From IMG/VR virus record IMGVR_UViG_2595698513_000001, positions 30,745 through 94,744 of that record: a stretch of DNA of 64,000 nt; one strand, given 5' to 3'. The position numbers and the translations under genes are program-made. Shown in pieces: positions 5,573 through 54,683 of the stretch. Under the pieces are notes generated by a model. That model was given only the letters and a program-made list of their open reading frames with translations, did not search any database and was not told the origin of the DNA. Every line of letters starts with the position of its first letter. The first letter of the stretch is position 1. The DNA comes from a virus. Lineage: Duplodnaviria; Heunggongvirae; Uroviricota; Caudoviricetes; Demerecviridae.

Positions 5573-6317
5573 AATCGGCACAGCTTGTCCACACGCAGTA
5601 GGCGAGCCAGGAGTTGATGCAACGCAACTAATCCTTGCACATCAGCTCTATGGTAATGTAGACCCTGATTCACTAGAATTGAGTCCGGTATCACATCACC
5701 ACTTGAACTGGGTATTTGACCTAGAAACATATGCAACTAATCAGAATGCAATTGTACCTGAGCTATCAGCAGTAGCATTTGATATTCTTTCTGGTGAAGT
5801 ATTTCATGAAGCTACGTTCCACATTGATGTAGATTCTCAAGTTGCTCTGGGGCGCGAAGTTTCAGCTTCTACGTTATCATTTTGGCTAATGCAGTCAGAA
5901 GATGCTCGTCGCAAAATGTTGCTTGCTGATGCTGAATATTGTGAGAAAAATGACTTACCAGCACCTCTGCAAATTGGTGGGGCTATGGCTCAGCTAAGTC
6001 ATATTATTAAGACAGTATCAGCTACATGGGCTGAACAAACAGGTCTTAGTAAAGAACCTATGGTATGGGGTAACGGTATCACATTCGATTTAGGTAAAAC
6101 TATTTCATTATTTGAAACAGCACAAGTTCCTTTGCCTTGGCAATTCTGGGCAGAGCGTGATGCACGTACATTGATGGATTTAGCTCCAGGTATTAAGAAA
6201 GCATTTGGACAAGATTTCCAAGGCATTCCTCATTACGGTCTAGACGACTGTAAACACGAGCTACGTTACTTGTCTGCTACTTACATTAAAATCTGGGAAA
6301 TGAGCAAAAACGATTAA
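5559..6317 (+). CDS. DEDDh-type 3'-5' exonuclease (DnaQ-like)
   Basis: VFDLETYATN exo motif I; HYGLDDC motif III; RBS AGGAG. Confidence 0.6.
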   Translation: MPENKIGTACPHAVGEPGVDATQLILAHQLYGNVDPDSLELSPVSHHHLNWVFDLETYATNQNAIVPELSAVAFDILSGEVFHEATFHIDVDSQVALGREVSASTLSFWLMQSEDARRKMLLADAEYCEKNDLPAPLQIGGAMAQLSHIIKTVSATWAEQTGLSKEPMVWGNGITFDLGKTISLFETAQVPLPWQFWAERDARTLMDLAPGIKKAFGQDFQGIPHYGLDDCKHELRYLSATYIKIWEMSKND

Positions 6318-9221: not shown

Positions 9222-9345
9222 CCAAATTTCTGAATCTACTATATAAAGCACTAAGGTCAACGGTACAGTAGTTGGTAACGGGGTTCGAGTCCCGACTGGG
9301 GGTGTAAGAGACCCCGAGTGACGACCTAATTCAGAAAATATTAAA

Positions 9346-9374
9346 TTGCTAAACATCACGATTTAACGTATAAT
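9346..9374 (+). promoter_or_regulatory. T5-type early promoter driving tRNA-Thr
   Basis: TTGCTA-17-TATAAT; leader AGTTACATAAAGTTGAGAAACGAATC lacks GGAG and runs into tRNA at 9404. Confidence 0.65.
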
Positions 9375-9403: not shown

Positions 9404-9476
9404 GCTTCCTTAGCTCAGTTGGGAGAGCAGCTCACTTGTAATGAGCAGGTCGTCCGTTCGAATCGGACAGGGAGCA
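9404..9476 (+). tRNA. tRNA-Thr (UGU)
   Basis: Anticodon stem GCTCA/TGAGC; loop CTTGTAA; driven by early promoter 9346-9374. Confidence 0.85.
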
Positions 9477-9498
9477 CCATTTATTTACGGAGAAGAAG

Positions 9499-9681
9499 AT
9501 GATTTATTTTAAAAATAAAGCAGGCAAAACTGGCGTTGTATCTTTTGATGATGCCGAATATGAGCTTCAAGCAGTCCAAAACCCGCAGGAGTTACACAAA
9601 GATGTAACTGTAGCTGTACGCGGTTTACCGAAAGACTGTTTACCCGCAGAGAAAACTGCTTTCTTAACCGTAGTCAAATAA
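9499..9681 (+). CDS. hypothetical small protein
   Basis: RBS GGAGAAGAAG then ATG; sits between tRNAs. Confidence 0.5.
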   Translation: MIYFKNKAGKTGVVSFDDAEYELQAVQNPQELHKDVTVAVRGLPKDCLPAEKTAFLTVVK

Positions 9682-43918: not shown

Positions 43919-44267
43919 ATATTTAGGGGATGTTTACAGCATCCCTAGAAAAACATTCGACTTCTGTATTGCTAGAAACTTACTGCGCAAGCTTTTCGCG
44001 GAGGCTATACCAGACAATCCATGTCATGAACGTCAAACGTTCTTTATTCTCAGTACATACGACCCAGACTTCCGCTGGTTTAGCGCAAGCTCTAAGAACC
44101 CAAAATATTATAAGAGATTCAATGATACTGTCAAGCACCTAGCAATACCAAATCTCACCAAGAATCAATGCAAGTTCTTGGACAAAATTACTAGAGAACA
44201 AGAGGATTTTCGTGATGCCATTAAGATAGCCAAGGAAGCTGTAAAAACCATATACGAAATTTCTTGA
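43908..44267 (+). CDS. hypothetical protein; last early-region gene before repeat region
   Basis: Overlap-coupled ATG. Confidence 0.5.
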   Translation: MKFRYLGDVYSIPRKTFDFCIARNLLRKLFAEAIPDNPCHERQTFFILSTYDPDFRWFSASSKNPKYYKRFNDTVKHLAIPNLTKNQCKFLDKITREQEDFRDAIKIAKEAVKTIYEIS

Positions 44268-44291
44268 CAGTTACACAAAGAACCTTTATAA
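44263..44291 (+). promoter_or_regulatory. perfect-consensus sigma70 promoter TTGACA-17-TATAAT firing into non-coding repeat region
   Basis: Both hexamers and spacing exact; no ORF longer than 20 aa downstream. Confidence 0.6.
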
Positions 44292-44544
44292 TATACTAAA
44301 GCCCAAAGGAAATTCTGGCAGGGCTAGGTGTCAGTGCTTGCATGACCGACTACATCTAAGGAGAGTCTGGAGCGAGCACTGAAGAACCTTGACCGCCGCG
44401 CTTGTATAAGGGGGAGTCTTATATGAAGAAAATTGTAAATATAGATGAACAGAATACGCCCCGCTATTCAATCCTAGTGCTATGATTATTACCCTAGTCT
44501 TTCCTATGAGAGCCTAGGGTTTTCTTATATCTGCCTACATAGAT

Positions 44545-45009
44545 TTTGCACCCTAGAATCTGCACCAAAATATCCTCCCTAGCTTGGGCAAATTTAGTGC
44601 GAAGCACATATCTAGCCCAGATTCCCCATGTCAATTCTAAAGCCTAGGATTTGCACCTATTGTATAAGGTCTTCTGATTATAGTATTAGTCGGATTGAGA
44701 CCGGTTCAAGGAGCGACCCCCGTAATTGTCAATTGGTTTTTTCAAAAATCTGCACCAAACGCCCCAAAACTTTATTTTCCTCCATAAAACCCACCAAATA
44801 GCACCAAAATCTCCATATATCTCTAGAATTCGCACCTACCTCACCGCCCTAGCACCTATCAATTTTGCACCTCCCCCAATAGCGGCATGTTTTGTGCGCA
44901 GCACGAGTCTAGCCGCAGATAGGGGTGTAGTTTTTGCACCTACATAGAATTTGCACCTATAGTTTTCGCACCTACATGTATCACTTTTGCACCAGTCGGA
45001 TTTGCACCC
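44545..45009. repeat. iteron-like array: at least 13 copies of (T)TTGCACC(T)
   Basis: Copies at 44545, 44559, 44650, 44749, 44829, 44851, 44864, 44931, 44950, 44963, 44985, 45001; irregular spacing. Confidence 0.7.
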
Positions 45010-45090
45010 GCAGGCGCAGAGGATTAGAGGTTGCTAATAAAGTATGCCCTAAATTAGTGATCCCTATATTAGTGATTGCTTATAGACTTC

Positions 45091-45150
45091 TAGCCATCCA
45101 GCCATCCAGACGTTTAGCCGTCTATCCGTCTAGCCATCCAGACTTCTAGA
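45091..45150. repeat. short tandem repeats AGCCATCCAG x3, CCGTCTA x2, ACTTCTAG x2
   Basis: Read directly. Confidence 0.7.
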
Positions 45151-45203
45151 CTTCCGTATGCCATACCGTATAAAATATGGCACGATTTTTGCTTATTAAA
45201 AAG

Positions 45204-45299
45204 TTATCCACAACTGTATATTTATACATGGCTCTAAAACGCTCTATACAGAGTTATCCACAACCTTATCCACCGCAAAACTACTGTATATTTATACAG
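45204..45299. repeat. DnaA-box cluster (2x TTATCCACA, 1x TTATCCACC) interleaved with two copies of palindrome CTGTATA-TT-TATACAG
   Basis: Boxes at 45204, 45254, 45266; palindromes at 45213 and 45284. Confidence 0.65.
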
Positions 45300-45550
45300 T
45301 GCTTTTCAGGTAGCAGATTATTCCGAATACCGTTTAAAGCTCCTATAAGCCTCGCTAACAGCATCCTAGCGTCATAGCAATACCCTAGCAAGGGGTAAGC
45401 CCTAAACAGCCCACACGCAGCACATGCAAGAACCATGCCAACCTGCCCGACGGGCGCGGTCAAATGAGAACTATTCTCATTTACATGTTTACAGTACGCC
45501 ATACGGTAAAAGGCAAAAAATTACAGCGTCATAGTGACGCTGTAACAGTT

Positions 45551-45772
45551 TTAATCTATTTGAAAATCACGCACTATCTCTAGAAACTCGCTGATTAAAA
45601 TTCCATCACATCGAATCTCTTCATCGCTCATATGCAAATAGCGTACCACAAATTTATCGTATTCTATTTGCTCTATTGACTCTACTAGCTCATTTTTATA
45701 GTACAGTGGGCGGAAACCGGATTCTTGCAAATGTTGCAAGAATGATACTAACATTTCACTAGGTCTTAACAT
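45551..45772 (-). CDS. hypothetical small protein (minus-strand island)
   Basis: ATGA-coupled to upstream gene. Confidence 0.45.
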   Translation of the reverse strand: MLRPSEMLVSFLQHLQESGFRPLYYKNELVESIEQIEYDKFVVRYLHMSDEEIRCDGILISEFLEIVRDFQID

Positions 45773-45966
45773 TACCAGTTAGCCTCCAATTGATAAAGCT
45801 TCTCAATTACATCGAATTGCTCGCCTTGCTCATTTTGCCAAACTTGCCCAAATTCGGTGTTTTCTACGTGCTTCATTGCCATAGGTATTGTGTAATATTG
45901 CATTTCCCCCATAAATGCAATATTACACATCCAGACTTGCCCTAGTGTTTCAACGTGCTGTTTCAC
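45772..45966 (-). CDS. hypothetical small protein
   Basis: Part of collinear minus-strand block. Confidence 0.45.
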   Translation of the reverse strand: MKQHVETLGQVWMCNIAFMGEMQYYTIPMAMKHVENTEFGQVWQNEQGEQFDVIEKLYQLEANW

Positions 45967-46226
45967 TGGTCTAACTCCAATCCAAGGTAATAGAAAGCAG
46001 TGGCGAAAAAGTAACTAATCAAAAACTGGTCACTAAACTCATAATGACCGGATACACTAGCAATACCTATCCAACCTGTAATAAAAACTAACAATCCATT
46101 AACATGAAATAAGCTTTTCATTTTTCAATCACCAAAATCTTGTTATAGTCCATCCGTACAGTAAAAAACGGCTTGCCATTTCTAACCGCCCACAATAGGG
46201 CGGTAGCGTAGTTGTCAAATTCCATA

Positions 46227-46544
46227 CTAGGCTTTTAACCAACCATTAACAAAAGTTGCGCCCTCATAGATAGCTCGCCATGTTAACAAGTCAGCCCTAG
46301 CATACTGAAAAAGCATACCGCCATTAGTTGCGCCCTTAGCAAAAGCAATAGCATACGTTAAAACTTTTGCTTTAAGAATTTCCTCGACTGACTCAAACAA
46401 GCTAATGTGAGTTGTCAAGTCAAAATGATACTCTTTGTTTGACAAAAAGCATTGCGCCATTTCCATACGCTTGCTGATACTAGTTTCTGCGTTTAGTTGG
46501 TATGCAGTGCTTACTACTGGATTAGTTAGATATTGCTTGTGCAT
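46227..46544 (-). CDS. hypothetical protein
   Basis: Minus-strand block. Confidence 0.45.
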   Translation of the reverse strand: MHKQYLTNPVVSTAYQLNAETSISKRMEMAQCFLSNKEYHFDLTTHISLFESVEEILKAKVLTYAIAFAKGATNGGMLFQYARADLLTWRAIYEGATFVNGWLKA

Positions 46545-46571
46545 TTTGTTGTCCTCGCTTTCTAGCGGTAA

Positions 46572-46964
46572 TTAATGTTTTGTAGCTGTCATAATGCAAT
46601 CAGGATTTTCCCCGATTACGGTATATTCTTCTATAGCACGCTTGCCAGCGCTCTCCCAAGATTGGTCGTTTTTTGTTTTATTAGCTACACCGTGTAGGTA
46701 ATAGCCGTTACCAGTATCACGCTCTAATGAGAATGGTTTACCCATATCAAAAGCATTGTTATAAAAGTGATGTTCCCAAGTACCCTCGACATCAAACCAA
46801 CGCCACATATAATGCTCGAACATGGCTTTCATTTTGTCAAGTGCTAGCTGACATTCAACCTCGCTGATAATATCAGCCTCAAAGCCGTTGCGAACAATAG
46901 CAACCGCTTTATTCCAACCTAGTGAATCAATAGTTTCAGACAAAACAAGGAAATCAATTTTCAT
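46572..46964 (-). CDS. hypothetical protein
   Basis: Minus-strand block; start chosen at MKIDFLV. Confidence 0.4.
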   Translation of the reverse strand: MKIDFLVLSETIDSLGWNKAVAIVRNGFEADIISEVECQLALDKMKAMFEHYMWRWFDVEGTWEHHFYNNAFDMGKPFSLERDTGNGYYLHGVANKTKNDQSWESAGKRAIEEYTVIGENPDCIMTATKH

Positions 46965-47060
46965 GGTAAAACCCCTCGCCAAAATCGGTGGCGGTATCCG
47001 TTTAGGCATCAATTGCCTAGGTCTTTATAATACTAAAACCTAGGCATTATGTAAAGTGAT

Positions 47061-47381
47061 TTAGTTCACAAAATGGTAATCTATTTGGTCTATGCCAATT
47101 TCACGCCATACCATAGAACTTGTATCTAGTCCATAGTTATCTAGCATAGCAGATAAATCTGTTACACAATCTAGGTCGCACATCCCCTCGATACCCATAT
47201 CAGAGTTATAGAACATCATACAGAATGCAGGGTGTACCATAACTGCTAGTTCGTTGTCAGCGTCAATATACCAGATGGTAGATTCTGGGTCTTCTACAAA
47301 ACTGCTACGTTCTTCCTTGACATAGCGCACAATTGAGTCAAGACTCAATAGAGTAGGTGTTTCGTTACAGTTAAAAGCCAT
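47061..47381 (-). CDS. hypothetical acidic protein
   Basis: First gene of minus-strand block. Confidence 0.45.
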   Translation of the reverse strand: MAFNCNETPTLLSLDSIVRYVKEERSSFVEDPESTIWYIDADNELAVMVHPAFCMMFYNSDMGIEGMCDLDCVTDLSAMLDNYGLDTSSMVWREIGIDQIDYHFVN

Positions 47382-47735
47382 ATTATTTCAATCTCCAATA
47401 AGGGTAAAATCCAATTGCCATAGCTAGGCAAAATGCGATACTGAAAACTAATTCAAACATACTATGCCTACCTTGTCAAATAGTTTTTTCATACTAGCAG
47501 CCGTAGCCACACACTCGCCAGTCTCCGTACTGACACACCACCAAATAACATCAAAAAATATACGATACATTTTTTAAGCCCTCCGTGTTGGGTAGGTCTA
47601 TATAGTATCAATTCTAGCTCATTTGTCTAATAACGTTTTGTTATAAGCGGCAGCAAAACGATGCCCAGGCGTTATAAGCGCTGTAAGCGATTTTGAGAGG
47701 TTTTATATAAAAGCCTTACTTTAATATGTCTAGGT

Positions 47736-47846
47736 TGTGGATAACCGCTTAGAATGGATTCTACAGCCTAGAAACGCCATACTGTTATTTATAAGCTGTG
47801 ATTTAGGGTAGATAACTTTCGTTTTCCTGTTGATAAGTTGTGGATA
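47736..47846. repeat. inverted DnaA boxes TGTGGATAA and TGTGGATAT
   Basis: Complement orientation of TTATCCACA; matching palindrome copy at 48067-48082. Confidence 0.55.
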
Positions 47847-48310
47847 TACAGTATATAACCAGTATTATTAGACTTTGCTAATGTGAATAAGTCTGTTGAT
47901 AAAAAGTTGGCATGAAACCTGCTAGTGTATGCAAAAGTCGTGCCATGTCAAAAATCGTGCCAACTTTTCGAAATTTTCCTATTTGCTGCGAAAAGAATGT
48001 TTTAATACTAGGGCATAGCTAAGGGCTAAAATCGCTTAGAATCGCATACAGAGCGTTTTAGCGATACTGTATAAATATACAGTTAGTTGACTTTACTTGA
48101 AAAGTATGCTACACGCGCGCCCGTTCCTTATATTTGTGGGCAAAATTCGCTGATAGCCAAAACCTATCAATCTAGTGATTTTTAAAGATTTAAACGATTA
48201 GACTAATTTTCAAGATTCGCTATTATATACCCATACCAACGAGACAGGGCAGCAACAAAAACCCTAGCGAGTTGAGTATAGAAAGACTGAAAAGTTTTTC
48301 AAAAAAGTAG

Positions 48311-48339
48311 TTGACAAGCCAAACGGCTTTTGAGATACT
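48311..48339 (+). promoter_or_regulatory. candidate pre-early promoter TTGACA-17-GATACT
   Basis: A-tract upstream; ~165 nt before the 48504 CDS. Confidence 0.5.
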
Positions 48340-48413
48340 ACTAACGTTCTCAAGGGAACACGCTCTTTAAAAATTTGGAATATGCGATTTGACCTATTGC
48401 TTACTTGATTGGA

Positions 48414-48470
48414 TTGTTTGAGTGTTAACCGTTAACCGATTCATTGCGAGTCGGTTAACTGAGAAACACT
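48414..48470 (+). promoter_or_regulatory. nested inverted repeat in 5' UTR of first pre-early gene
   Basis: GAGTGTTAACCG...AACCGATTCATTGCGAGTCGGTT...AACACTC. Confidence 0.5.
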
Positions 48471-48503
48471 CTCATTTAACTAACCTATTAAGAGGAAAAT
48501 ATC

Positions 48504-48974
48504 ATGGCTAAGAAATGGACAGAAGAATCAGCAGCAAAAGCAGCAGAACTTTACAATGCTAAACTAGAAGCAGACGGTAAAGAAGCAGCAGCACACAACG
48601 ATTTTCTAGACACAATTGCAGCGCACGCAGAAGTGCAAGCCGTGTCAGGTAAAGCGGTTCGCTCAAAACTGACAGTTATGGGTATCTACCAAAAACCGGA
48701 CGCAGTTGCAAGTGTTGCGAAAACTAACACAGTGCGTAAAGAACACTATGTTCGTGCTCTAGCTCACAGCTTGAAAGTTGACGCAGAAGAACTAGACAGC
48801 CTCAAAAACGCTAAAATGTCAGCCCTAGCAGCTATCACAGAAGCTATTGGTATCACTGATATTATGGCAGCAAGCGCAAAAGATTATACGCCTAATGAGT
48901 TGATTCTCATTAAAGGTTTTGCGTTAGCGAATGGTATAGACCTAGCCGATATTGTAGACGACTTGGAAGACTAA
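48504..48974 (+). CDS. pre-early-region protein (Ala-rich, acidic)
   Basis: RBS AAGAGGAAAA; follows promoter 48311-48339 and 5'-UTR hairpin. Confidence 0.6.
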   Translation: MAKKWTEESAAKAAELYNAKLEADGKEAAAHNDFLDTIAAHAEVQAVSGKAVRSKLTVMGIYQKPDAVASVAKTNTVRKEHYVRALAHSLKVDAEELDSLKNAKMSALAAITEAIGITDIMAASAKDYTPNELILIKGFALANGIDLADIVDDLED

Positions 48975-48982
48975 CCCTAAAC

Positions 48983-49047
48983 AATTAAAGGGGAAATTTC
49001 CCCTTTAATTTACAGTGTAAATTGATGGACAGTTTACACTGTAAATT
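48983..49047 (+). promoter_or_regulatory. 28-bp perfect palindrome plus double-palindrome operator-like element (copy 1)
   Basis: AATTAAAGGGGAAATTTCCCCTTTAATT then AATTTACAGTGTAAA-11-TTTACACTGTAAATT. Confidence 0.6.
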
Positions 49048-49070
49048 AACCCATAATTGGAGATAAAACC

Positions 49071-49442
49071 ATGTCAAATCAAACTCAAATCATTGCGCTA
49101 GGTTCACTATTAGAAGCAGGTAATGCAAAAAGTGAGCTACAGCAAAAAGTGTCTAAACTGATTAACGTTCGTTTCGGTTGGCGAGTCAATGACCGTATTT
49201 CTAGCAAAACATTGCAAACCGTAATTGATTTAATAGAAAATCACGGCGGTAAAAAGCTATTCAACCCTAGCGAGCTAGATTCATTAGTTTATGCTAATAA
49301 AGCGGCAAAACTAACCGTGTTCAGCCTACTATGTGAAGCGTTAAAAATCACTGAGCTAACAGAGCGTAAAAATATTATGTCTATTGTTACTAGTGGCGGT
49401 GAACGTGAATTTCCGGTTCAAGTTCTAAAGGCATTCAGTTAA
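49071..49442 (+). CDS. A2-sized (123 aa) pre-early protein
   Basis: Size and position upstream of the A1-like gene, as in T5 FST DNA. Confidence 0.4.
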   Translation: MSNQTQIIALGSLLEAGNAKSELQQKVSKLINVRFGWRVNDRISSKTLQTVIDLIENHGGKKLFNPSELDSLVYANKAAKLTVFSLLCEALKITELTERKNIMSIVTSGGEREFPVQVLKAFS

Positions 49443-49450
49443 TAACGGGT

Positions 49451-49515
49451 TTACGCCCTTAAACTAGGGCGTAAATTTACAGTGTAAATTGATGGACAGT
49501 TTACACTGTAAATTT
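49451..49515 (+). promoter_or_regulatory. hairpin plus double-palindrome operator-like element (copy 2)
   Basis: TTTACGCCCTTAAACTAGGGCGTAAA then the identical 38-bp AATTTACAGTGTAAATTGATGGACAGTTTACACTGTAAATT. Confidence 0.6.
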
Positions 49516-49543
49516 CAACCAACCCCATAGCGGAGTATAAACA

Positions 49544-51199
49544 ATGTCTAAAGTATTAGTAGAAAACAAAGCGCAAATCCTTAAACTAGCAAAAGGCGAA
49601 AACTTTTGGGGCAAACGCCTTGACTCAAAACGTCGTGAGGTTGCAATCTCGATTCGTGATGCTCTTAAAATTGATGTACATTCTAGCAAGTTAATTGAGT
49701 TTCTGGACGATAACAAACCAGTAAACAAGACGCAGAAAAAATCGCATAGTCAGCAAGCGAAAGAAGATATTGAGCCAACGTTTGCAGGTTCAATGACAGG
49801 GCGTGATTATGAAAACCTAGACGATGGTTTATATATCATTACAGCAGCCCAAAACAATACACGCCCACACCCAGTATTAAATACTTTGTTGTCAATGGCT
49901 AAATCGTTGGATGCTGAGTTCGGTATCATGCCAATTAAATACACAACAACGTTGCAAGGTTTGGAGCGTAAAAAGCCTAGTTTTCACGCAGAAATCAAAA
50001 AGCATTTACTTGATTACACTGATACATGGTTGGGCGGTGAAGGTAACGTGCTACTCGCTAACAGTGCTCAAATTCTACCGACTGCAAAACAACCTATCAA
50101 TGCAGCCGAAAAGCTAAACACTGGCGAATCAATGACAGTAGTTGCAAGCCCTAGACGACAAACAAAAACCCTACCACGCCAGAAAAACGGCTCACATCGT
50201 TGGGTTTATACAACGGCAGTTTGTACGCTTAAACACTACACTGACAGTCGTGCAGGGGCAGAAGCGGAAGCAGAGCATTGTTTCGGTGGTATCTTGATTC
50301 AAGTTACTAACGGCATGGTTAATCACCGTCGATTAGTAGCAGACGAAAACGGCGTTATTGTTGATAATGGTTCGGTGTACTTCCCTGACGGTACAATCAA
50401 AGCTTACAATGATGTATTTGACAATCAGCCCGTAATTGTGCTAGGTGATTTGCATTGCGAAAAAATGTGCGACGACTCATTCACTCGTGCAACAAATTGG
50501 GCATTCGCTCAAAACCCTAAACTGATTGTTGTGCATGATGCTCTAGACTTTATGAGCCGTAATCACCACAACCGCGAGGACTGGACATTCTTATACCAGA
50601 TGCAAGACCGTGCAGTAATCGAAGATTTAGCCGATGTTATTAATCACTTGAATGCACTTGCTGACATTGCGCCTGTCTTTATTGTTGAGTCAAACCATGA
50701 TTTAGCCCTTGATTCGTGGCTACGTGATAATAAATTCGATGTACGAAAAGACCCGAAAAACGCCCGTACATATCATGCTCTAATGCTTGCTTATATTGAA
50801 GCAATGGACAACGGCACATTTAACGACCTAGCAAAAATGGATTTAGCATTCGCAGCCCTAGCCGACCAATTGCCAGAACTGAGCGAAAATATCGAGTTCG
50901 GCAAAATCGACGAACAAAAACTAGCGTATGGTTATGATATTTCAATGCATGGTCACGTGGGTACAGGTGGGGCTCGTGGTTCGGCTGTCAGCTTTAAGAA
51001 AATGCGAATCAAAACCATCACAGGACATACACACTCACCATTCGAAGATAACAACAATATTGTTGTCGGTGTAACTGGTAGTATGGAAATGGGTTACAAC
51101 AAAGGCGGTACAACTTGGGACAGAGCTAACGCTATTGTTTACCCGAACTCAACTTGTCAGCTAATCCCTATGTACTTGATTGGCGAACAACAATACTAA
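49544..51199 (+). CDS. A1: A1-like metallophosphoesterase (551 aa)
   Basis: GDLHCE, NHD, GHTH calcineurin-like motifs; size close to T5 A1 (556 aa); adjacent to dmp-like gene. Confidence 0.5.
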   Translation: MSKVLVENKAQILKLAKGENFWGKRLDSKRREVAISIRDALKIDVHSSKLIEFLDDNKPVNKTQKKSHSQQAKEDIEPTFAGSMTGRDYENLDDGLYIITAAQNNTRPHPVLNTLLSMAKSLDAEFGIMPIKYTTTLQGLERKKPSFHAEIKKHLLDYTDTWLGGEGNVLLANSAQILPTAKQPINAAEKLNTGESMTVVASPRRQTKTLPRQKNGSHRWVYTTAVCTLKHYTDSRAGAEAEAEHCFGGILIQVTNGMVNHRRLVADENGVIVDNGSVYFPDGTIKAYNDVFDNQPVIVLGDLHCEKMCDDSFTRATNWAFAQNPKLIVVHDALDFMSRNHHNREDWTFLYQMQDRAVIEDLADVINHLNALADIAPVFIVESNHDLALDSWLRDNKFDVRKDPKNARTYHALMLAYIEAMDNGTFNDLAKMDLAFAALADQLPELSENIEFGKIDEQKLAYGYDISMHGHVGTGGARGSAVSFKKMRIKTITGHTHSPFEDNNNIVVGVTGSMEMGYNKGGTTWDRANAIVYPNSTCQLIPMYLIGEQQY

Positions 51200-51279
51200 T
51201 CCTTAGCCTAACGGCTCGACGGGCGCAAATGTGACGCCCGTCACACTTTACAACTTACCCATATTTGGAGATTTTATTC

Positions 51280-51918
51280 ATGAAAAAAGCATATGTATTC
51301 GACCTTGACGGCACAACAATTGATTCATTCCACCGTGTTGAGCCTTGCCTAGATTCACAAGGCAACTTAAACCTTGACAAATACATTAAAGAGGCTTGCA
51401 CACCTGAGAAAGTCGCAGATGATACGCTCTTACCACTTGCCGGATATATGCAACAACTAATTGAGCAAGGTGAATTAGTAATCATTCTCACAGCACGATT
51501 CATGCTTAACCATGATTATGTTTATTTACGCAAAAATAAACTACGTGCGCCAATCATTTGCAGCCGTGACCAGTTGCCTCGTGTATTTGGTGAAGGCAAT
51601 GCAGCCCGTATCAGTGCAATGTCAGACGCGCCATATAAACATGAATGGTTTAATCACTTGTTTGCTAGTATGCCTCAAGTTACTGAGTGGTGTTTCTTTG
51701 ACGACCACGACGGTATATTAGAAATGGCTAATCAATTAAAAGGTGTTACAGCTACCGACGCCAAATTGATGAATGAGCTGTTACAGATGCAATGGGCTGA
51801 CATTTACCGCCAAGGTGAACAGGACACCGCCGAGCTAATACAAGACCTAATAGATGAATGTTCAACTCAAGACGTGATTTGCAAACCGGAATGGATTGAT
51901 GAGCTTTTAGCTCAATAA
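51280..51918 (+). CDS. dmp: HAD-family phosphatase, candidate 5'-deoxyribonucleotidase
   Basis: VFDLDGTT HAD motif I; position next to the A1-like gene. Confidence 0.5.
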   Translation: MKKAYVFDLDGTTIDSFHRVEPCLDSQGNLNLDKYIKEACTPEKVADDTLLPLAGYMQQLIEQGELVIILTARFMLNHDYVYLRKNKLRAPIICSRDQLPRVFGEGNAARISAMSDAPYKHEWFNHLFASMPQVTEWCFFDDHDGILEMANQLKGVTATDAKLMNELLQMQWADIYRQGEQDTAELIQDLIDECSTQDVICKPEWIDELLAQ

Positions 51919-52065
51919 TCAAAGAAAAGCTGTACAAATAAGAATGGCTCTCAATTGAGAGCCATTATCATATAGGGGGCGGTAATGAGACTAGTTCTCA
52001 TTTGGCTATGGCGGTACACCCCCTATCTTGTACAACTTTGTGAAAATTGAAGATTCGAAAGGGTG

Positions 52066-52734
52066 CTATAATACCTGTATCAATGATTTTACCTCCTGTG
52101 CCATATTTTCATCTAAAAGCAGAAACTCCGTGCCACCGTCTCCATCAAGTTTGTGCCTAAACTCTACATAGTTATATAGAATACTACTCTCTATCTCTTT
52201 GGCAGCCTCTGTATTTCTTATTAGAATTATCTCCGGCTCTGTAATATTTTGCCCAGATGCTACTCGTTTTATCCTTGACTTTACTAACTGAGTAGTACTT
52301 ACCCCTATCTTGTATATATTGGTTGAAGGTACTCTCCACATGTATACAGTATTAAATATCTTGCCTGCGCATACTGGACATCCTGAGCCCCTAACTACTT
52401 GTCCATATTCTGCTTCCCATTCATGGGAGCATATATCGCAGTGGAAAAGATGCTTACTATGTCTATTTACATATGTAGATATTAATTTAATATTACCGTG
52501 TACTTCTAGTATATCGGATTCTGCTTCTTCTTGAGTACGTTTTCTAGAACTACAGTGAGGGCACTTAGTCCCTCTGAATATATTATCAGGAGTTGTTTTC
52601 CAAGTATGTTTCTTATTACACTTAAATGTGTGTTGTTTATTAGAGCCTTTATACGGCTCAGCTAACATGATTGTTTCTCCATGTATCTCTAATATACGTT
52701 TATTTGCTTCTTCTGTAGTTAACTTCCTGCCCAT
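52066..52734 (-). CDS. tandem zinc-ribbon protein with C-terminal GIY-YIG-like region
   Basis: Two CxxC...CPxC ribbons; VYMWRV...IYKIGVS...R...E spacing resembles GIY-YIG. Confidence 0.35.
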   Translation of the reverse strand: MGRKLTTEEANKRILEIHGETIMLAEPYKGSNKQHTFKCNKKHTWKTTPDNIFRGTKCPHCSSRKRTQEEAESDILEVHGNIKLISTYVNRHSKHLFHCDICSHEWEAEYGQVVRGSGCPVCAGKIFNTVYMWRVPSTNIYKIGVSTTQLVKSRIKRVASGQNITEPEIILIRNTEAAKEIESSILYNYVEFRHKLDGDGGTEFLLLDENMAQEVKSLIQVL

Positions 52735-52745
52735 ATAAACCTCAC

Positions 52746-54683
52746 TTATGCCGTACCCGTTACATAAAACCCAAATCGAGCTTCGGGTATCTTGTATACT
52801 ACATCGCGCTCGCCTAACTTGTTATAGTATGTGTTACGCCCCCATTCATTCGCCAGAATCTGTGCATTAGTTAGTTGGTAGCTTCCTACTAGTTCTACCT
52901 CATTCCTTACCCAGTTTACACGTACTTTATATCGTATACGAACTGCCTGCATCTTATTGCCACTGCTAGAAGTTGGCCAATAGCTTGAGCCGATTCTACC
53001 TTCACTATGCCTAGATAAAGATACATCGCGAATAACACTATATCCTAGATCTCCTACTATAATCTCTTTCTCTGGACGCGCACGCTCAAAAGTATATAAT
53101 CTTAACGCTGCCCAGCCATCGAACCCATTTACACTTGCCTGCATACTTGACTTTTTACCTGCAATCGTGCTGCTCGCCTCCCCGTGCATGTATATAGGGC
53201 TGATATGTACAGTTAAGTAGTTTTTACTAGTACTGCCTGGTGGTAGTTTGATCCTTTGTTTAACTATCTCTTTCTTATATACGCCTATATCATTAGGGTT
53301 ATATATTGAGATACGTGGACCACTAAAGGTCTTTTTCTGGAAGTATGTACCTTGCCGCAGTTGTGCAAATGTCTTAGTTTCTGCCGGAAATATCGCCGTG
53401 ATAGCTGTATCCCCACCAAGAATGTAGGGTGTGTATTTCCTAGCTTTAGATGCTATTAAAAACTCGCCTTTACTTCCTTTATATTTAATTTCATCAGCAC
53501 TAAACTCTAGCGATATATTACTCCCTAGCAACGCGGATGGACTATGTACTAGAGGTATTGTAGAAGCCCCACTAGCCCGCCATGCTTTAGTTTTCAAGTT
53601 ATACTGAAAGTAATGTAGGAATGGGTAGTCTGCTAGTTGAGACGGTGTTAACCCCTTTATTAGTTTTTCGAAATAAGTAGGCTTTACCTTATTGTATATG
53701 GTATTGAGTCTAGTGGAATCCATGCTAGTTTCCATTGGGGCTGGGTCTGATAGTAGCATACCATTCTTCATAGATAGGTCGCCAATAACCATATCTTCTC
53801 TAGAGATTTTAATACCATCTGCTTTAGGTGGTTTAACATGCTCTACATTATTTTGACTATTATATTTAACATTAAGAACATAGATTCTTAATTTAAAGTT
53901 ACTTGAAGATGGTTTGGTTGACGAGTACGTCAGGGTTTTAGGTGCTGATTGACTCTGACTTGAGAATACCTGTCTACCTGTACCTCCCCTACCAAATAAG
54001 TGTACCAAGTCTCTAGTTGGGTTAGAGTAATTGGCACTAGTGCTTCTTGAAGTCTTTGAAATATTTGCTGTTCTATAATATTGATAGTAAGTAGATATAG
54101 TGTCTCTTTGTAGTCCTGATACATTCCATACACCTTCCCTGTCAGATCTACCAGCTCTAATACCTTGATCTATATTCCAGTTTTTATCTTGTAATGCTGC
54201 CTTGAATACAGTAAGCGGATCCCAATGTCCATAGATATTACTTGTGTTCGGTACTGGGCTGCTAGGGTATGGTGAGCCATCCCTACCGAAAGAAGAACCT
54301 TGGAAATTACCTATAAATATGCCGAAACGACCAGCCTCTGGACTTCTAGATGTAGGAGTACCTAGAGGTGTGTGTGTTACAGTAGCATCATTGTAATATA
54401 CTTGTGTACCAAACATGATTTGTCGTTGATTAATGTAGTCCCATACTTTTTGTGGGACTATAGGTTCATAGTAGTGATCCCATCTTTTATATCCTTTTAC
54501 TGTTTCTACATGACGGAATTGGGTGATTTCTACTATATCATAAATTGCTAGATACGGGATATCAGAGTGAAATAGCGTTGACGCTATCGGTGCTCCATCT
54601 AGTTGTGAAAGAGACTCATTACCACTAGTTACATGCAGTAAAGGTCTATTATCTGAGGGCTTTCTGCCCATAAATAATGCCAT
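52746..54683 (-). CDS. pb5 (oad)-like receptor-binding tail protein, 645 aa
   Basis: Size (~640 aa) and position: divergent from terminase next to TR, as T5 oad; own consensus promoter. Confidence 0.4.
   Translation of the reverse strand: MALFMGRKPSDNRPLLHVTSGNESLSQLDGAPIASTLFHSDIPYLAIYDIVEITQFRHVETVKGYKRWDHYYEPIVPQKVWDYINQRQIMFGTQVYYNDATVTHTPLGTPTSRSPEAGRFGIFIGNFQGSSFGRDGSPYPSSPVPNTSNIYGHWDPLTVFKAALQDKNWNIDQGIRAGRSDREGVWNVSGLQRDTISTYYQYYRTANISKTSRSTSANYSNPTRDLVHLFGRGGTGRQVFSSQSQSAPKTLTYSSTKPSSSNFKLRIYVLNVKYNSQNNVEHVKPPKADGIKISREDMVIGDLSMKNGMLLSDPAPMETSMDSTRLNTIYNKVKPTYFEKLIKGLTPSQLADYPFLHYFQYNLKTKAWRASGASTIPLVHSPSALLGSNISLEFSADEIKYKGSKGEFLIASKARKYTPYILGGDTAITAIFPAETKTFAQLRQGTYFQKKTFSGPRISIYNPNDIGVYKKEIVKQRIKLPPGSTSKNYLTVHISPIYMHGEASSTIAGKKSSMQASVNGFDGWAALRLYTFERARPEKEIIVGDLGYSVIRDVSLSRHSEGRIGSSYWPTSSSGNKMQAVRIRYKVRVNWVRNEVELVGSYQLTNAQILANEWGRNTYYNKLGERDVVYKIPEARFGFYVTGTA

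Follow-up and report, generated by a model that had tools for sequence, protein, structure and literature searches.

What is a compact run of small leftward genes doing in the early half of a T5-like phage genome, and why is it bracketed on both sides by DnaA boxes and by copies of one palindrome? The region that raises this question lies in a 64,000-nt window (the whole stretch of DNA that was analysed, with positions counted from its first letter) and is 100% identical to Vibrio phage pVp-1, a T5-like member of the Demerecviridae. A first-pass annotation, made from the letters alone, took the mirrored flanks to suggest one of two answers: an invertible or mobile unit, or a divergently regulated pre-early transcription unit controlled by host DnaA. 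After comparison with related phages, we consider it very probable that the block is a variable second pre-early operon and that its flanks are versions of the T5 repeat modules, which we read as arrays of sites for host proteins.

Genomic setting of the block

The architecture of the T5 terminal repeat has been mapped since 1987 (Heusterspreute, 1987; Wang, 2005; Davison, 2015; all as relayed in Davison, 2020, bioRxiv 10.1101/866236). According to the literature, the T5 repeat contains inverted-repeat modules and eight DnaA boxes in pairs 3 bp apart, with a variable block between them. The T5 block is deletable, several of the genes in it harm the host when expressed or are otherwise toxic, and experimental work has characterised a promoter that precedes gene 011. 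T5 and BF23 are the only phages for which two-step transfer has been demonstrated, and the comparison in Davison (2020) covers 25 enterobacterial relatives, Vibrio phages not included.

Adjacent homologues of A2, A1 and dmp place the pVp-1 block in the same setting. A2 is the first gene of an A2-gp133-A1-dmp operon that diverges from the block, A1 matches T5-like A1 proteins over 98% of its length, and the dmp homologue is assigned by the annotation of pVp-1. Because the deposited record holds one copy of the terminal repeat only, the limits of the repeat were inferred through relatives. The end of the VF16 left terminal repeat (PhageTerm-defined, 7,427 bp) maps to ~44724, VF16 record position 1 to 52019, and Ceto record position 1 to 44713. 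By this mapping, 52019 would be the dmp-side physical end, ~44715 would limit the left repeat on its inner side and the right repeat on its outer side, and the minus-strand block, as placed via VF16, would lie inside the long direct terminal repeat.

The block is a variable pre-early accessory operon of the T5-like terminal repeat, and this layout is already known. The reading of the DNA as a T5-like phage with a pre-early unit divergent from A2-A1-dmp, set between DnaA-box and palindrome modules, is supported. The description of the unit as the only sizeable minus-strand block holds for positions 1-52000, but a second minus-strand pair, gp136/gp137, lies at 52066-54683. As first described, the island adds little, being the Vibrio-phage version of a known T5 architecture; its value is comparative.

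Genes, promoter and terminator

The block consists of eight small minus-strand genes, gp131 to gp126 and two unannotated open reading frames (ORFs) (Table 1). Five ORFs had been reported, and all five exist (they are gp126 to gp130), but the true count is eight. The one given as 146 aa is present in the shorter form of gp129, which starts at ATG 46964 after a GAGGGG Shine-Dalgarno sequence. Two smaller candidates proved to be real genes of 35 and 52 aa that are kept in relatives, and the start and stop of the 52-aa ORF (hydropathy peak 1.62) overlap both of its neighbours. The eighth gene, gp131, had been missed; it is found in all eight Vibrio relatives, and because it belongs to the block the unit extends over 45551-47570.

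In PHROGs, seven of the eight ORFs fall into phage-only families whose function is unknown, none of the eight reached the threshold for a Pfam family, and NCBIfam gave nothing for the seven submitted (the 35-aa ORF was left out). No PDB sequence match was found for gp129 or gp130, and Foldseek searches of the PDB with their AF2 models (pLDDT 69.8 and 69, respectively) returned no match, hence no known fold for gp129. Homology searches with the block proteins returned a handful of clusters, in which the named members are Vibrio phage proteins and the rest metagenome sequences; for gp130 there were only seven protein clusters, those with a named source again being Vibrio phage proteins. Across the eight Vibrio relatives, gene presence and absence form a mosaic within a constant order and strand. 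The block is a source of eight orphan pre-early proteins. By analogy with the T5 block (genes hegG to 017), they most likely serve in host takeover or anti-defence as accessories that a phage can do without and that are exchanged between phages.

The minus-strand promoter search that the first-pass annotation had proposed yielded a predicted sigma70-type promoter upstream of gp131. Its -35 block, GTTATTAGAC, is invariant in eight relatives, while the -10 element differs among them (TACTAT, TATGAT or GTAAAT/TAAATA, all plausible hexamers). At the other end, no hairpin in the region is stronger than the predicted intrinsic terminator, and a hairpin of differing sequence is retained at this place in relatives. 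Read from the sequence and from comparison with relatives, the operon would be transcribed leftward by host sigma70 RNA polymerase from 47629-47602 and end at the 45546-45520 hairpin. Two further ORFs within 45300-45550, of 73 aa on the minus strand and 36 aa on the plus strand, are probably spurious, because the indels of relatives in this interval are not multiples of three. An Rfam search of 44000-48700 gave nothing credible (best match rnk leader, E = 0.61).

Table 1. Features of the block, its flanks and its surroundings in the window.
Feature	Position	Strand	Details
Direct-repeat array of TTTGCACC type, counterpart of T5 direct repeat D	44530..45010		Repeat families D2, D3, D5
Inferred terminal repeat (first-step-transfer DNA)	44715..52019		Single (collapsed) copy in the deposited pVp-1 record
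8-bp periodic repeat, overlapping copies (TAGCCATCCAG and similar)	45075..45154		Repeat family D1
Exact sigma54 -24/-12 consensus TGGCACGATTTTTGCT (putative site)	45178..45193	+	0 mismatches; faces inward to the block
Left DnaA-box set	45204..45274	+	45204-45212; pair 45254-45262 and 45266-45274, 3-bp gap
Distal palindrome D TACTGTATATTTATACAGTG	45282..45301		LexA matrix 24.8 bits; consensus-grade LexA-box sequence
Sigma54-like motif TGGCATGGTTCTTGCA	45425..45440	-	Conserved in VF16, VPT02, Ceto, PVo5
Palindrome AAATGAGAA-N3-TTCTCATTT	45459..45483		Inverted repeat I1, direct repeat D10
Predicted intrinsic terminator, 12-bp stem then U6	45520..45546	-	-16.6 kcal/mol, z = -5.8
gp126, 73 aa	45551..45772	-	phrog_15257, E = 4e-38; in 6 relatives
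gp127, 64 aa	45772..45966	-	phrog_16136; in 6 relatives
Unannotated hydrophobic ORF, 52 aa	45963..46121	-	71-73% identity in Quinn, PVo5
Unannotated ORF, 35 aa	46118..46225	-	phrog_17073, E = 2e-30; 94-100% identity in 6 relatives
gp128, 105 aa	46227..46544	-	phrog_11691; in 6 relatives
gp129, 130 aa, helical	46572..46964	-	phrog_24651; among 8 relatives only VPT02, Ceto
gp130, 106 aa, acidic (pI 4.1)	47061..47381	-	phrog_16450; in 8/8 relatives
gp131, 40 aa, first gene of the operon	47448..47570	-	phrog_16279; 8/8 relatives; GGAGGG Shine-Dalgarno
Predicted sigma70-type promoter, TAGACA-16 nt-(TG)TACTAT	47602..47629	-	Promoter scan; relatives
Right DnaA-box set	47736..47902	-	47736; 47828 and 47839 (2-bp gap); 47882 and 47894 (3-bp gap)
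Sigma54-like cluster	47908..47962	-	Exact 47930-47945 (-); weaker 47947-47962 (-); weak 47908-47923 (+)
T5 IRB-like element (48047-48061), then proximal palindrome D TACTGTATAAATATACAGTT (48065-48084)	48047..48084		LexA matrix 24.7 bits
T5 IRC-like element TGAGAAACACTCTCATTTAA, just upstream of A2	48452..48480		Repeats D10, I1
A2 homologue gp132	48504..48974	+	37.5% identity to T5 A2; alignment; annotation

The flanks as versions of the T5 repeat modules

DnaA boxes do flank the block, three on the plus strand to the left and five on the minus strand to the right. At one mismatch or fewer the whole 64-kb window holds 18 matches, eight of which are packed into ~240 bp of the flanks where ~0.07 would be expected. 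The left set encloses a degenerate palindrome copy (45212-45231) and an element like T5 IRB' (45234-45248). The right set also holds the conserved ATTAGACTTTGCTAAT (47867-47882) and is largely conserved in the eight-phage alignment, its first box, TGTGGATAA, being invariant. The second shared feature, three copies of one palindrome across the two flanks (45214, with one mismatch; 45284; 48067), was borne out as well, against 0.17 copies expected, and none of 100 shuffles reached three. The claim that the flanks are mirrored is true of the DnaA-box strands and of short inverted-repeat patches, but the right flank is no simple mirror image: there, the DnaA boxes stand between the block and the palindrome. 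Of the two modules, only the right one falls within the region of the divergent promoters; the left one is situated past the terminator, from where it cannot regulate transcription of the block.

The same elements recur in T5. An identical 16-mer, CTGTATAAATATACAG, is shared by T5 at both modules, each time beside DnaA boxes (position 6137, at the end of IRD, and position 9332, palindrome D inside IRD'). In pVp-1, as in T5, palindrome D is accompanied by DnaA pairs ~3 bp apart at fixed and matching distances: the box offsets from the distal palindrome are -80, -30 and -18 in pVp-1 and -92, -80, -31 and -19 in 30 T5-type genomes found through A2. Motifs resembling T5 IRB, IRC, DR-C and DR-D are also present. 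The IRC-like element compares with T5 GTGAGAAACACTATCATTTAA, the palindrome at 45459-45483 resembles T5 direct repeat C and T5 palindromes E to I (T5 9480-9640), and the reverse complement of 44993-45008 is GGTGCAAATCCGACTG, compared with TGTGCAAATCCGACA in T5 DR-D. The direct-repeat array runs across the repeat boundary, as in T5. A blastn search with 45196-45306 matched 393 records, mostly T5-like-sized phages of Salmonella, Klebsiella, Vibrio and Escherichia, and one match falls on a T5 feature annotated as "injection stop signal". In IMG/VR, contigs of 103-128 kb account for nearly all occurrences of DnaA boxes combined with the palindrome.

This comparison shows that the flanks are not recombination sites but the pVp-1 counterparts of two T5 modules, IRC-spacer-IRD (repeat region 2) and IRD'-spacer-IRC' (repeat region 3, which is annotated as the injection stop signal). 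They are non-coding cis elements that across the family are better conserved than the genes between them. As in the T5 left terminal repeat, the block is divergent from the neighbouring A2-A1-dmp genes and carries small, poorly conserved genes with their own promoter and terminator. Several differences separate the two phages. First, no gene of the pVp-1 block is common to T5 (hegG/011 to 017). Second, the T5 inverted repeat is 131 bp long and nearly perfect, whereas that linking the pVp-1 flanks is fragmentary, with patches of 15-25 nt or less. Third, the proximal module is rearranged, its DnaA boxes lying on the block side of the palindrome in pVp-1 and on the A2 side in T5. Finally, an additional, degenerate copy of the palindrome stands between the distal boxes of pVp-1, and of the two phages only pVp-1 has sigma54-like motifs.

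Palindrome D as a predicted LexA site

Palindrome D has the form of a LexA box, CTGT-N8-ACAG, which is also the Vibrio LexA motif. It agrees with the LexA consensus at 18-19 of 20 positions. Scored with a matrix built from 17 E. coli boxes, the two full palindromes reach 24.8 and 24.7 bits, compared with 12.9-23.8 bits for the 17 E. coli sites and 15.7 bits for the best of 30 shuffles. The pVp-1 palindrome is thus as near to consensus as any natural LexA operator, such as those of E. coli dinD, sulA and recA. In phages of Aeromonas, Providencia and V. crassostreae, CTGT and ACAG are kept and the central 8 bp differ, and phage 70E37.6 carries two different palindrome centres in one genome. Fixed outer tetranucleotides around a variable centre across clades are likewise what LexA operators display, and the LexA of the hosts uses this motif. 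The proximal copy in relatives often reads ATGT or TTGT, which would weaken one LexA half-site. The central TT/AA was considered as an orientation mark and dropped, since it is not conserved among relatives.

In other respects the palindrome departs from known LexA operators. It belongs to a strictly lytic phage, has DnaA boxes as neighbours and, in one copy, lies past a terminator. A simple sigma70 scan detected no promoter overlapping either palindrome (45282-45301 and 48065-48084); because neither overlaps a recognisable promoter, classical LexA repression is not evident. The palindromes are not ordinary terminators either, their AT-rich stems having free energies of -7.6 to -9.5 kcal/mol and no U-tract of their own, with a negative terminator scan. 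E. coli DH5a is a recA1 strain, and a T5-like phage is recorded on this host (H64). Since recA1 hosts thus support T5-like phages, these phages cannot strictly require LexA cleavage, and a role for LexA would therefore be modulatory or dependent on occupancy. Hosts with another LexA motif would offer a natural comparison, but all true Demerecviridae hosts found are gammaproteobacteria with the same motif, and although A1 homologues also occur in phages of Rhizobium, Caulobacter and Flavobacterium, the genomes of these phages are not organised like that of T5. No paper linking T5 with LexA or an SOS box was found in the literature that could be searched, and the shared palindrome, as a predicted LexA site of consensus strength, looks new.

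Sigma54-type motifs in the flanks

The flanks also contain motifs that match the promoters of sigma54 (RpoN), TGGCACG-N4-TTGCW, with the -24 GG and -12 GC at exact spacing. The strict pattern TGGCAYG-N4-TTGC has three exact matches against 0.00 expected. The copy at 45178-45193 is conserved in nine of nine Vibrio phages with substitutions confined to the N4 spacer, and across Vibrio and Aeromonas phages fixed -24/-12 elements with variable spacers resemble genuine sigma54 promoters. This conserved copy faces non-coding DNA and the terminator at the 3' end of the block, and no gene. Counterparts of the right-hand cluster are found in VF16, VPT02, X1 and PG07 and are absent in Ceto, Quinn and Brizo; its exact copy, at 47930-47945, forms the spacer of a sigma70-like site, TTGACA-16-TACACT. 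Neither T5 nor Providencia PSTCR5 has the motif. A literature search for sigma54 promoters in phages returned nothing relevant, and the clustering of these putative sites in the flanks appears to be new.

Possible functions of the flanks

The Vibrio, Aeromonas and Providencia clades are distant enough (A2 30-37% identical) to reveal where selection acts in the T5 injection-stop region, namely on DnaA boxes that are paired and keep their offsets and on a palindrome, CTGT-N8-ACAG, with a free centre. This pattern points to host LexA as a second host protein at the ~60-year-old injection-stop question. We hypothesize that the flanks serve as high-affinity arrays for host proteins, the paired boxes binding DnaA and the palindrome LexA, and with the sigma54 holoenzyme as a further member in phages of Vibrio and Aeromonas. 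Such proteins would load onto the first DNA entering the cell, at a proximal array between the two divergent pre-early operons and at a distal array; the latter is ~460-590 bp away from the repeat boundary, on its inner side, in the part of the repeat where transfer of T5 DNA comes to a pause. Host-protein occupancy could then contribute to pausing, anchoring or timing DNA transfer and the pre-early programme, as could loss of LexA, acting as a signal once A1 begins chromosome destruction. In its full form, the proposal is that the injection-stop and pre-early modules of the T5 family are arrays of consensus-strength host-protein sites, that LexA truly uses palindrome D as an operator, placed at a constant spacing from paired DnaA boxes, that sigma54 sites were added in Vibrio and Aeromonas phages, and that the phage makes use of their occupancy. 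We put this forward tentatively and consider it improbable as a whole.

The palindrome could instead be the operator of a phage protein, A2 alone or together with A1, with its likeness to a LexA box arising from coincidence or mimicry. A2 is present in every palindrome-carrying phage and has an invariant core (VRSKL...YQK...K.HY.R), and according to the literature its dimer binds double-stranded DNA and second-step transfer requires it; one palindrome sits at the injection-stop region, the place at which action of A1 and A2 is required. However, a phage operator would have to match the LexA consensus at 18-19 of 20 positions and outscore natural SOS boxes by chance or imitation, its fixed CTGT/ACAG and drifting centre in distant clades follow the known recognition pattern of LexA, and its neighbours are unambiguous sites for a host factor, DnaA. 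We regard this alternative as possible though somewhat unlikely.

A different reading confines the modules to gene control, the DnaA boxes (perhaps with the palindrome) being mainly transcriptional operators that tune both divergent operons and the distal copy a by-product of duplication. The 930 bp that separate the divergent genes gp131 and A2 are taken up by the right module, the invariant 47736 box abuts a conserved TAGACA, and a minus-strand sigma70-like site at 47951-47924 would read through five DnaA boxes. In 70E37.6, Quinn and Brizo, moreover, the palindrome stands 12-14 nt upstream of a plus-strand sigma54-like motif facing A2. Yet the distal module, past the terminator, is the better conserved of the two, and box-palindrome spacing is fixed in all clades examined; the conserved promoter at 47629-47602 is free of boxes and palindromes, and the T5 modules lie ~200 bp from the annotated promoters P3 and P4. 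We therefore doubt that transcriptional control is their main function.

A phage replication origin dependent on host DnaA is very improbable, for although eight DnaA boxes in ~240 bp include some oriC-like close pairs, no markedly AT-rich segment was seen beside either cluster at 400-bp resolution (GC 0.355-0.45 in 400-bp windows, compared with ~0.31-0.46 across 16 kb), the literature maps T5 origins near the middle of the genome with replication genes silent during first-step transfer, and clusters duplicated and mirrored around a gene block are unlike known origins.

Orientation of the block

There remains the suggestion that the block is an invertible or mobile cassette, which recombination between the mirrored flanks would flip or move, switching gene expression. 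A gene block between inversely oriented elements does recall the Mu G, P1 C and Salmonella hin segments, and the mirrored DnaA-box strands, the inverted-repeat patches linking the flanks and the mosaic gene content between them in relatives fit such a unit. Those segments differ in that pVp-1 has no invertase gene, its close relatives lack a second orientation, and its flanks are multi-motif arrays common to the T5 injection-stop region. No recombinase, transposase or homing endonuclease gene was found in or adjoining the block (eight block proteins compared with Pfam and PHROGs, seven with NCBIfam). The inverted arms are at most 25 nt long and 73-100% matched, the longest perfect one (18 nt) being the palindrome itself. 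Gene order and strand are identical in all eight Vibrio relatives, so that orientation and context are conserved at this range, and the block is divergent from A2 also in three further clades and in 31 of 33 T5-like IMG/VR genomes. These results contradict an invertible or mobile unit, which we consider highly improbable. In the other two IMG/VR genomes, and in the annotated record of My1, the genes between the repeats are mostly co-directional with A2, and orientation has therefore changed over family-level evolution. Where it differs, Davison (2020) reports replacement by different genes and no flipped copy.

Location of the Block Within the Predicted Terminal Repeat

The stretch from 45000 to 48300 is identical (100%) to Vibrio phage pVp-1 (NC_019529; Demerecviridae, Vipunavirus), and subtracting 30744 from a position in that record gives the window position. 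In relatives with determined ends, the record opens with the counterpart of the block region, and in phage VF16 the corresponding DNA falls inside the left terminal repeat (7,427 bp, PhageTerm-defined). With boundaries mapped back from VF16 and Ceto, the pVp-1 terminal repeat is predicted to span about 44715-52019, where 52019 (the dmp side) would be the physical left end and ~44715 would bound the left repeat on its inner side and the right repeat on its outer side. Because the block region maps within the terminal repeat, it is the counterpart of the T5 first-step-transfer, pre-early DNA, in keeping with the pre-early location guessed in the first-pass annotation.

Comparison with VF16 and Ceto suggests that the pVp-1 record, deposited at 111,506 bp, is a permuted assembly in which the two terminal repeats have been merged into one; the virion genome should measure ~118.8 kb, with repeats of ~7.3 kb each and ends near ~44715 and ~52019. 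Annotated gp125 (46 aa, minus strand, 44494-44634) lies wholly inside an array of TTTGCACC-type repeats that runs across the repeat boundary, and is unlikely to be a true gene. Directly past the repeat on its dmp side, and ahead of the small terminase gene, another two minus-strand genes occupy 52066-54683, gp136 (222 aa) and gp137 (645 aa).

Comparison of the Flank Modules With T5

Both flanks carry DnaA boxes and palindrome copies, as had been claimed: 8 of the 18 DnaA-box matches of the whole window fall in the flanks within about 240 bp, and three copies of the palindrome are present where 0.17 would be expected. Their description as mirrored holds only in part, since several short inverted-repeat patches join the flanks but the right one is no simple mirror image of the left. 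In T5, an identical 16-mer, CTGTATAAATATACAG, is present twice, each time beside DnaA boxes. The layout of the T5 terminal repeat (LTR) is as in pVp-1: dmp, A1, and A2 share one strand and are followed by IRC, IRD, and a promoter, after which the small genes 011-017 run on the opposite strand; past this block, T5 has terminators, palindrome D together with IRD' and IRC', then direct repeats C and D, and finally the repeat end. Counterparts of individual T5 elements are listed in the table.

Features of the block and its flanks in pVp-1 and related phages
Feature	Genome	Position	Strand	Detail
Block promoter, sigma70-type	pVp-1	47629-47602	-	TAGACA-16-(TG)TACTAT
gp131	pVp-1	47448-47570	-	40 aa; strong GGAGGG ribosome-binding site upstream; in 8/8 relatives examined
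35-aa ORF	pVp-1	within 45963-46225	-	matches phrog_17073; 94-100% identity in six relatives; unannotated in pVp-1 record
52-aa hydrophobic ORF	pVp-1	within 45963-46225	-	conserved in Quinn and PVo5; unannotated in pVp-1 record
DnaA boxes (<=1 mismatch)	pVp-1	45204, 45254, 45266	+	
DnaA boxes (<=1 mismatch)	pVp-1	47736, 47828, 47839, 47882, 47894	-	
IRB/IRB' counterparts	pVp-1	45234 and 48047		CTAAAACGCT...; match to T5 element
IRC counterpart	pVp-1	48456		TGAGAAACACT.TCATTTAA; match to T5 element
DR-C counterpart	pVp-1	45459		AAATGAGAA...; match to T5 element
DR-D counterpart	pVp-1	within array 44530-45010		GTGCAAATCCGAC; match to T5 element
16-mer copy 1	T5	6137-6152		end of inverted repeat D
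16-mer copy 2	T5	9332-9347		palindrome D, inside inverted repeat D'
Palindrome	pVp-1	45282		LexA matrix score 24.8 bits
Palindrome	pVp-1	48065		LexA matrix score 24.7 bits
Palindrome	T5	9330		LexA matrix score 25.5 bits
Palindrome	T5	6135		LexA matrix score 20.8 bits
Candidate sigma54-type -24/-12 motif	pVp-1	45178-45193	+	
Candidate sigma54-type -24/-12 motifs	pVp-1	45425-45440, 47930-47945, 47947-47962	-	
Candidate sigma54-type motifs	T5-like relative L106	4051-7999		pre-early module
Candidate sigma54-type motifs	T5-like relative L104	3832-5581		pre-early module

The family was surveyed in 37 T5-like IMG/VR genomes picked via A2, without selecting on the palindrome, and 33 of them have the palindrome at both modules. 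Thirty are T5-type genomes, in which 1.6-4.1 kb separates the two palindromes; relative to the distal palindrome, DnaA boxes stand on the plus strand at -92, -80, -31, and -19, and relative to the proximal one on the minus strand at +26, +38, +87, and +99. In the three Vibrio-type genomes the proximal module is rearranged, as in pVp-1. The distal boxes of pVp-1 stand at -80, -30, and -18, and the -31 box is retained in My1, PSTCR5, X1, and AhSzq-1. A 111-nt left-flank query matched 393 phage records, chiefly of Salmonella, Klebsiella, Vibrio, and Escherichia phages with genomes of T5-like size, including a feature of the T5 record AY692264 annotated as 'injection stop signal'. Within IMG/VR, the combined DnaA-plus-palindrome pattern is almost confined to contigs of 103-128 kb. 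The assignment of the flanks to T5-type modules is thus well supported, and the island with its flanks represents the T5 first-step-transfer architecture in a Vibrio phage, with the proximal module rearranged.

A comparison of 25 enterobacterial T5-like phages described the same architecture of RR modules and a variable block, found that conservation is higher in the repeat modules than in the genes they enclose, and proposed that membrane-bound DnaA stops injection (Davison, bioRxiv 10.1101/866236); Vibrio phages, LexA, and promoters were not covered there. Control of the block itself by host DnaA, as the first-pass annotation suggested, would by position be plausible for the right module alone.

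The AAATGAGAA...TTCTCATTT palindromes at 45459-45483 and 48452-48480 recur in T5 direct repeat C and T5 palindromes E to I (T5 9470-9640). One T5 copy, TTAAATGAGAATCATTATC, shares by eye about 15 of the 19 positions of the Fur-box consensus GATAATGATAATCATTATC, the pVp-1 copies being poorer, a curious likeness given that the T5 receptor FhuA is Fur-regulated.

Orientation, Expression, and Gene Content of the Block

An invertible or mobile unit, one of two readings first offered for this block, finds no support: none of the eight products matches a recombinase, the arms measure at most 25 nt, and the orientation is constant in all close relatives and most of the family, but not universal. The genes between the palindromes are mostly co-directional with A2 in two IMG/VR T5-like genomes (L084, 111,103 bp; L095, 123,490 bp) and in the annotated record of My1, and therefore the block between the modules must have switched direction at least once during the history of the family. 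Such differences have been attributed to replacement by different genes (Davison, bioRxiv 10.1101/866236). The other reading, a divergent pre-early unit, is borne out. The -35 block of its promoter, GTTATTAGAC, is unchanged across eight phages, and the -10 differs among plausible hexamers (TACTAT, TATGAT, GTAAAT/TAAATA). Directly 3' of the gp126 stop is a terminator, a GC-containing 12-bp hairpin with a U6 tail (-16.6 kcal/mol, z = -5.8); at the equivalent position, relatives carry a hairpin made of differing sequences. The 250 bp between terminator and left palindrome are non-coding, with indels among relatives that are not multiples of three. We conclude that the best mechanistic reading would be a sigma70-driven accessory operon set between cis-acting arrays for host proteins.

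A terminator scan and folding rejected the palindromes themselves as terminators. Between the proximal palindrome and A2 (48090-48500), VF16, VPT02, and X1 have an annotated 86-aa plus-strand ORF, and pVp-1 only a 32-aa ORF.

All five minus-strand ORFs of the first-pass annotation are present as gp126-gp130, the one given as 146 aa being 130 aa long, and its two small candidates are real genes; gp131 was missed, so that the block holds eight genes, not five. For the most part they encode acidic orphan proteins. Matches to PHROGs of unknown function were obtained for seven of them, Pfam gave none for any of the eight, and NCBIfam none for the seven submitted (the 35-aa ORF left out). Neither gp129 nor gp130 has a sequence match in the PDB, and their AlphaFold models (pLDDT about 69-70) matched no solved fold. 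Across the eight Vibrio relatives gene content is mosaic, with gp131 and gp130 in all and gp129 in only two; gene order and strand are constant. The T5 counterpart block can be deleted with small plaques as the sole phenotype, and a number of the genes in it are toxic to E. coli, data which by analogy suggest an accessory host-takeover role for the pVp-1 genes. Within the gp127 coding sequence, 45889-45929 is an inverted repeat whose perfect 17-bp arms enclose a 7-nt loop (TGTGTAATATTGCATTT ... AAATGCAATATTACACA).

Similarity of the Palindrome to a LexA Box

The palindrome is a near-perfect LexA-box sequence (TACTGTATATTTATACAGTG and TACTGTATAAATATACAGTT). On the LexA matrix, which was derived from 17 E. 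coli SOS boxes, the scores in the table compare with 23.8 bits for the best training site and 15.7 bits for the best site in 30 window shuffles. In deeper clades CTGT and ACAG are retained and the central 8 bp altered, as in Aeromonas AhSzq-1 (CTGTATGGATATACAG), Providencia PSTCR5 (CTGTTTATTTATACAG), and the single genome of V. crassostreae phage 70E37.6 (CTGTATATCCATACAG and CTGTATATTTATACAG). Fixed ends with a free centre are the constraint expected of LexA recognition, and Vibrio LexA recognizes the same motif. This likeness appears to be new; no link between T5 and LexA was found in the literature searched, the 1987 and 2005 primary papers and a 2015 review lying outside its reach.

Four considerations weigh against a classical SOS role. 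The palindromes overlap no recognizable promoter, and in the proximal copy of relatives ATGT or TTGT is frequent. A T5-like phage has been recorded on E. coli DH5a, a recA1 strain, and therefore LexA cleavage must be dispensable. A credible alternative ligand is A2, the dimeric DNA-binding protein of the phage itself. We consider it unlikely that LexA acts alongside DnaA in the region of injection stop and pre-early control; if it did, it would be a second host protein acting there.

Sigma54-Type Motifs in the Flanks

Three matches to the strict pattern TGGCAYG-N4-TTGC are present in the window, where 0.00 would be expected, and all of them fall within the flanks. The motifs cluster in the non-coding pre-early modules of T5-like phages of Vibrio and Aeromonas, and among these phages the N4 spacer differs and the -24 and -12 elements are constant; T5 and Providencia PSTCR5 have no such motif. 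The clustering of these candidate sites seems to be new. In 70E37.6, Quinn, and Brizo, one motif follows a palindrome by 12-14 nt and points at A2.
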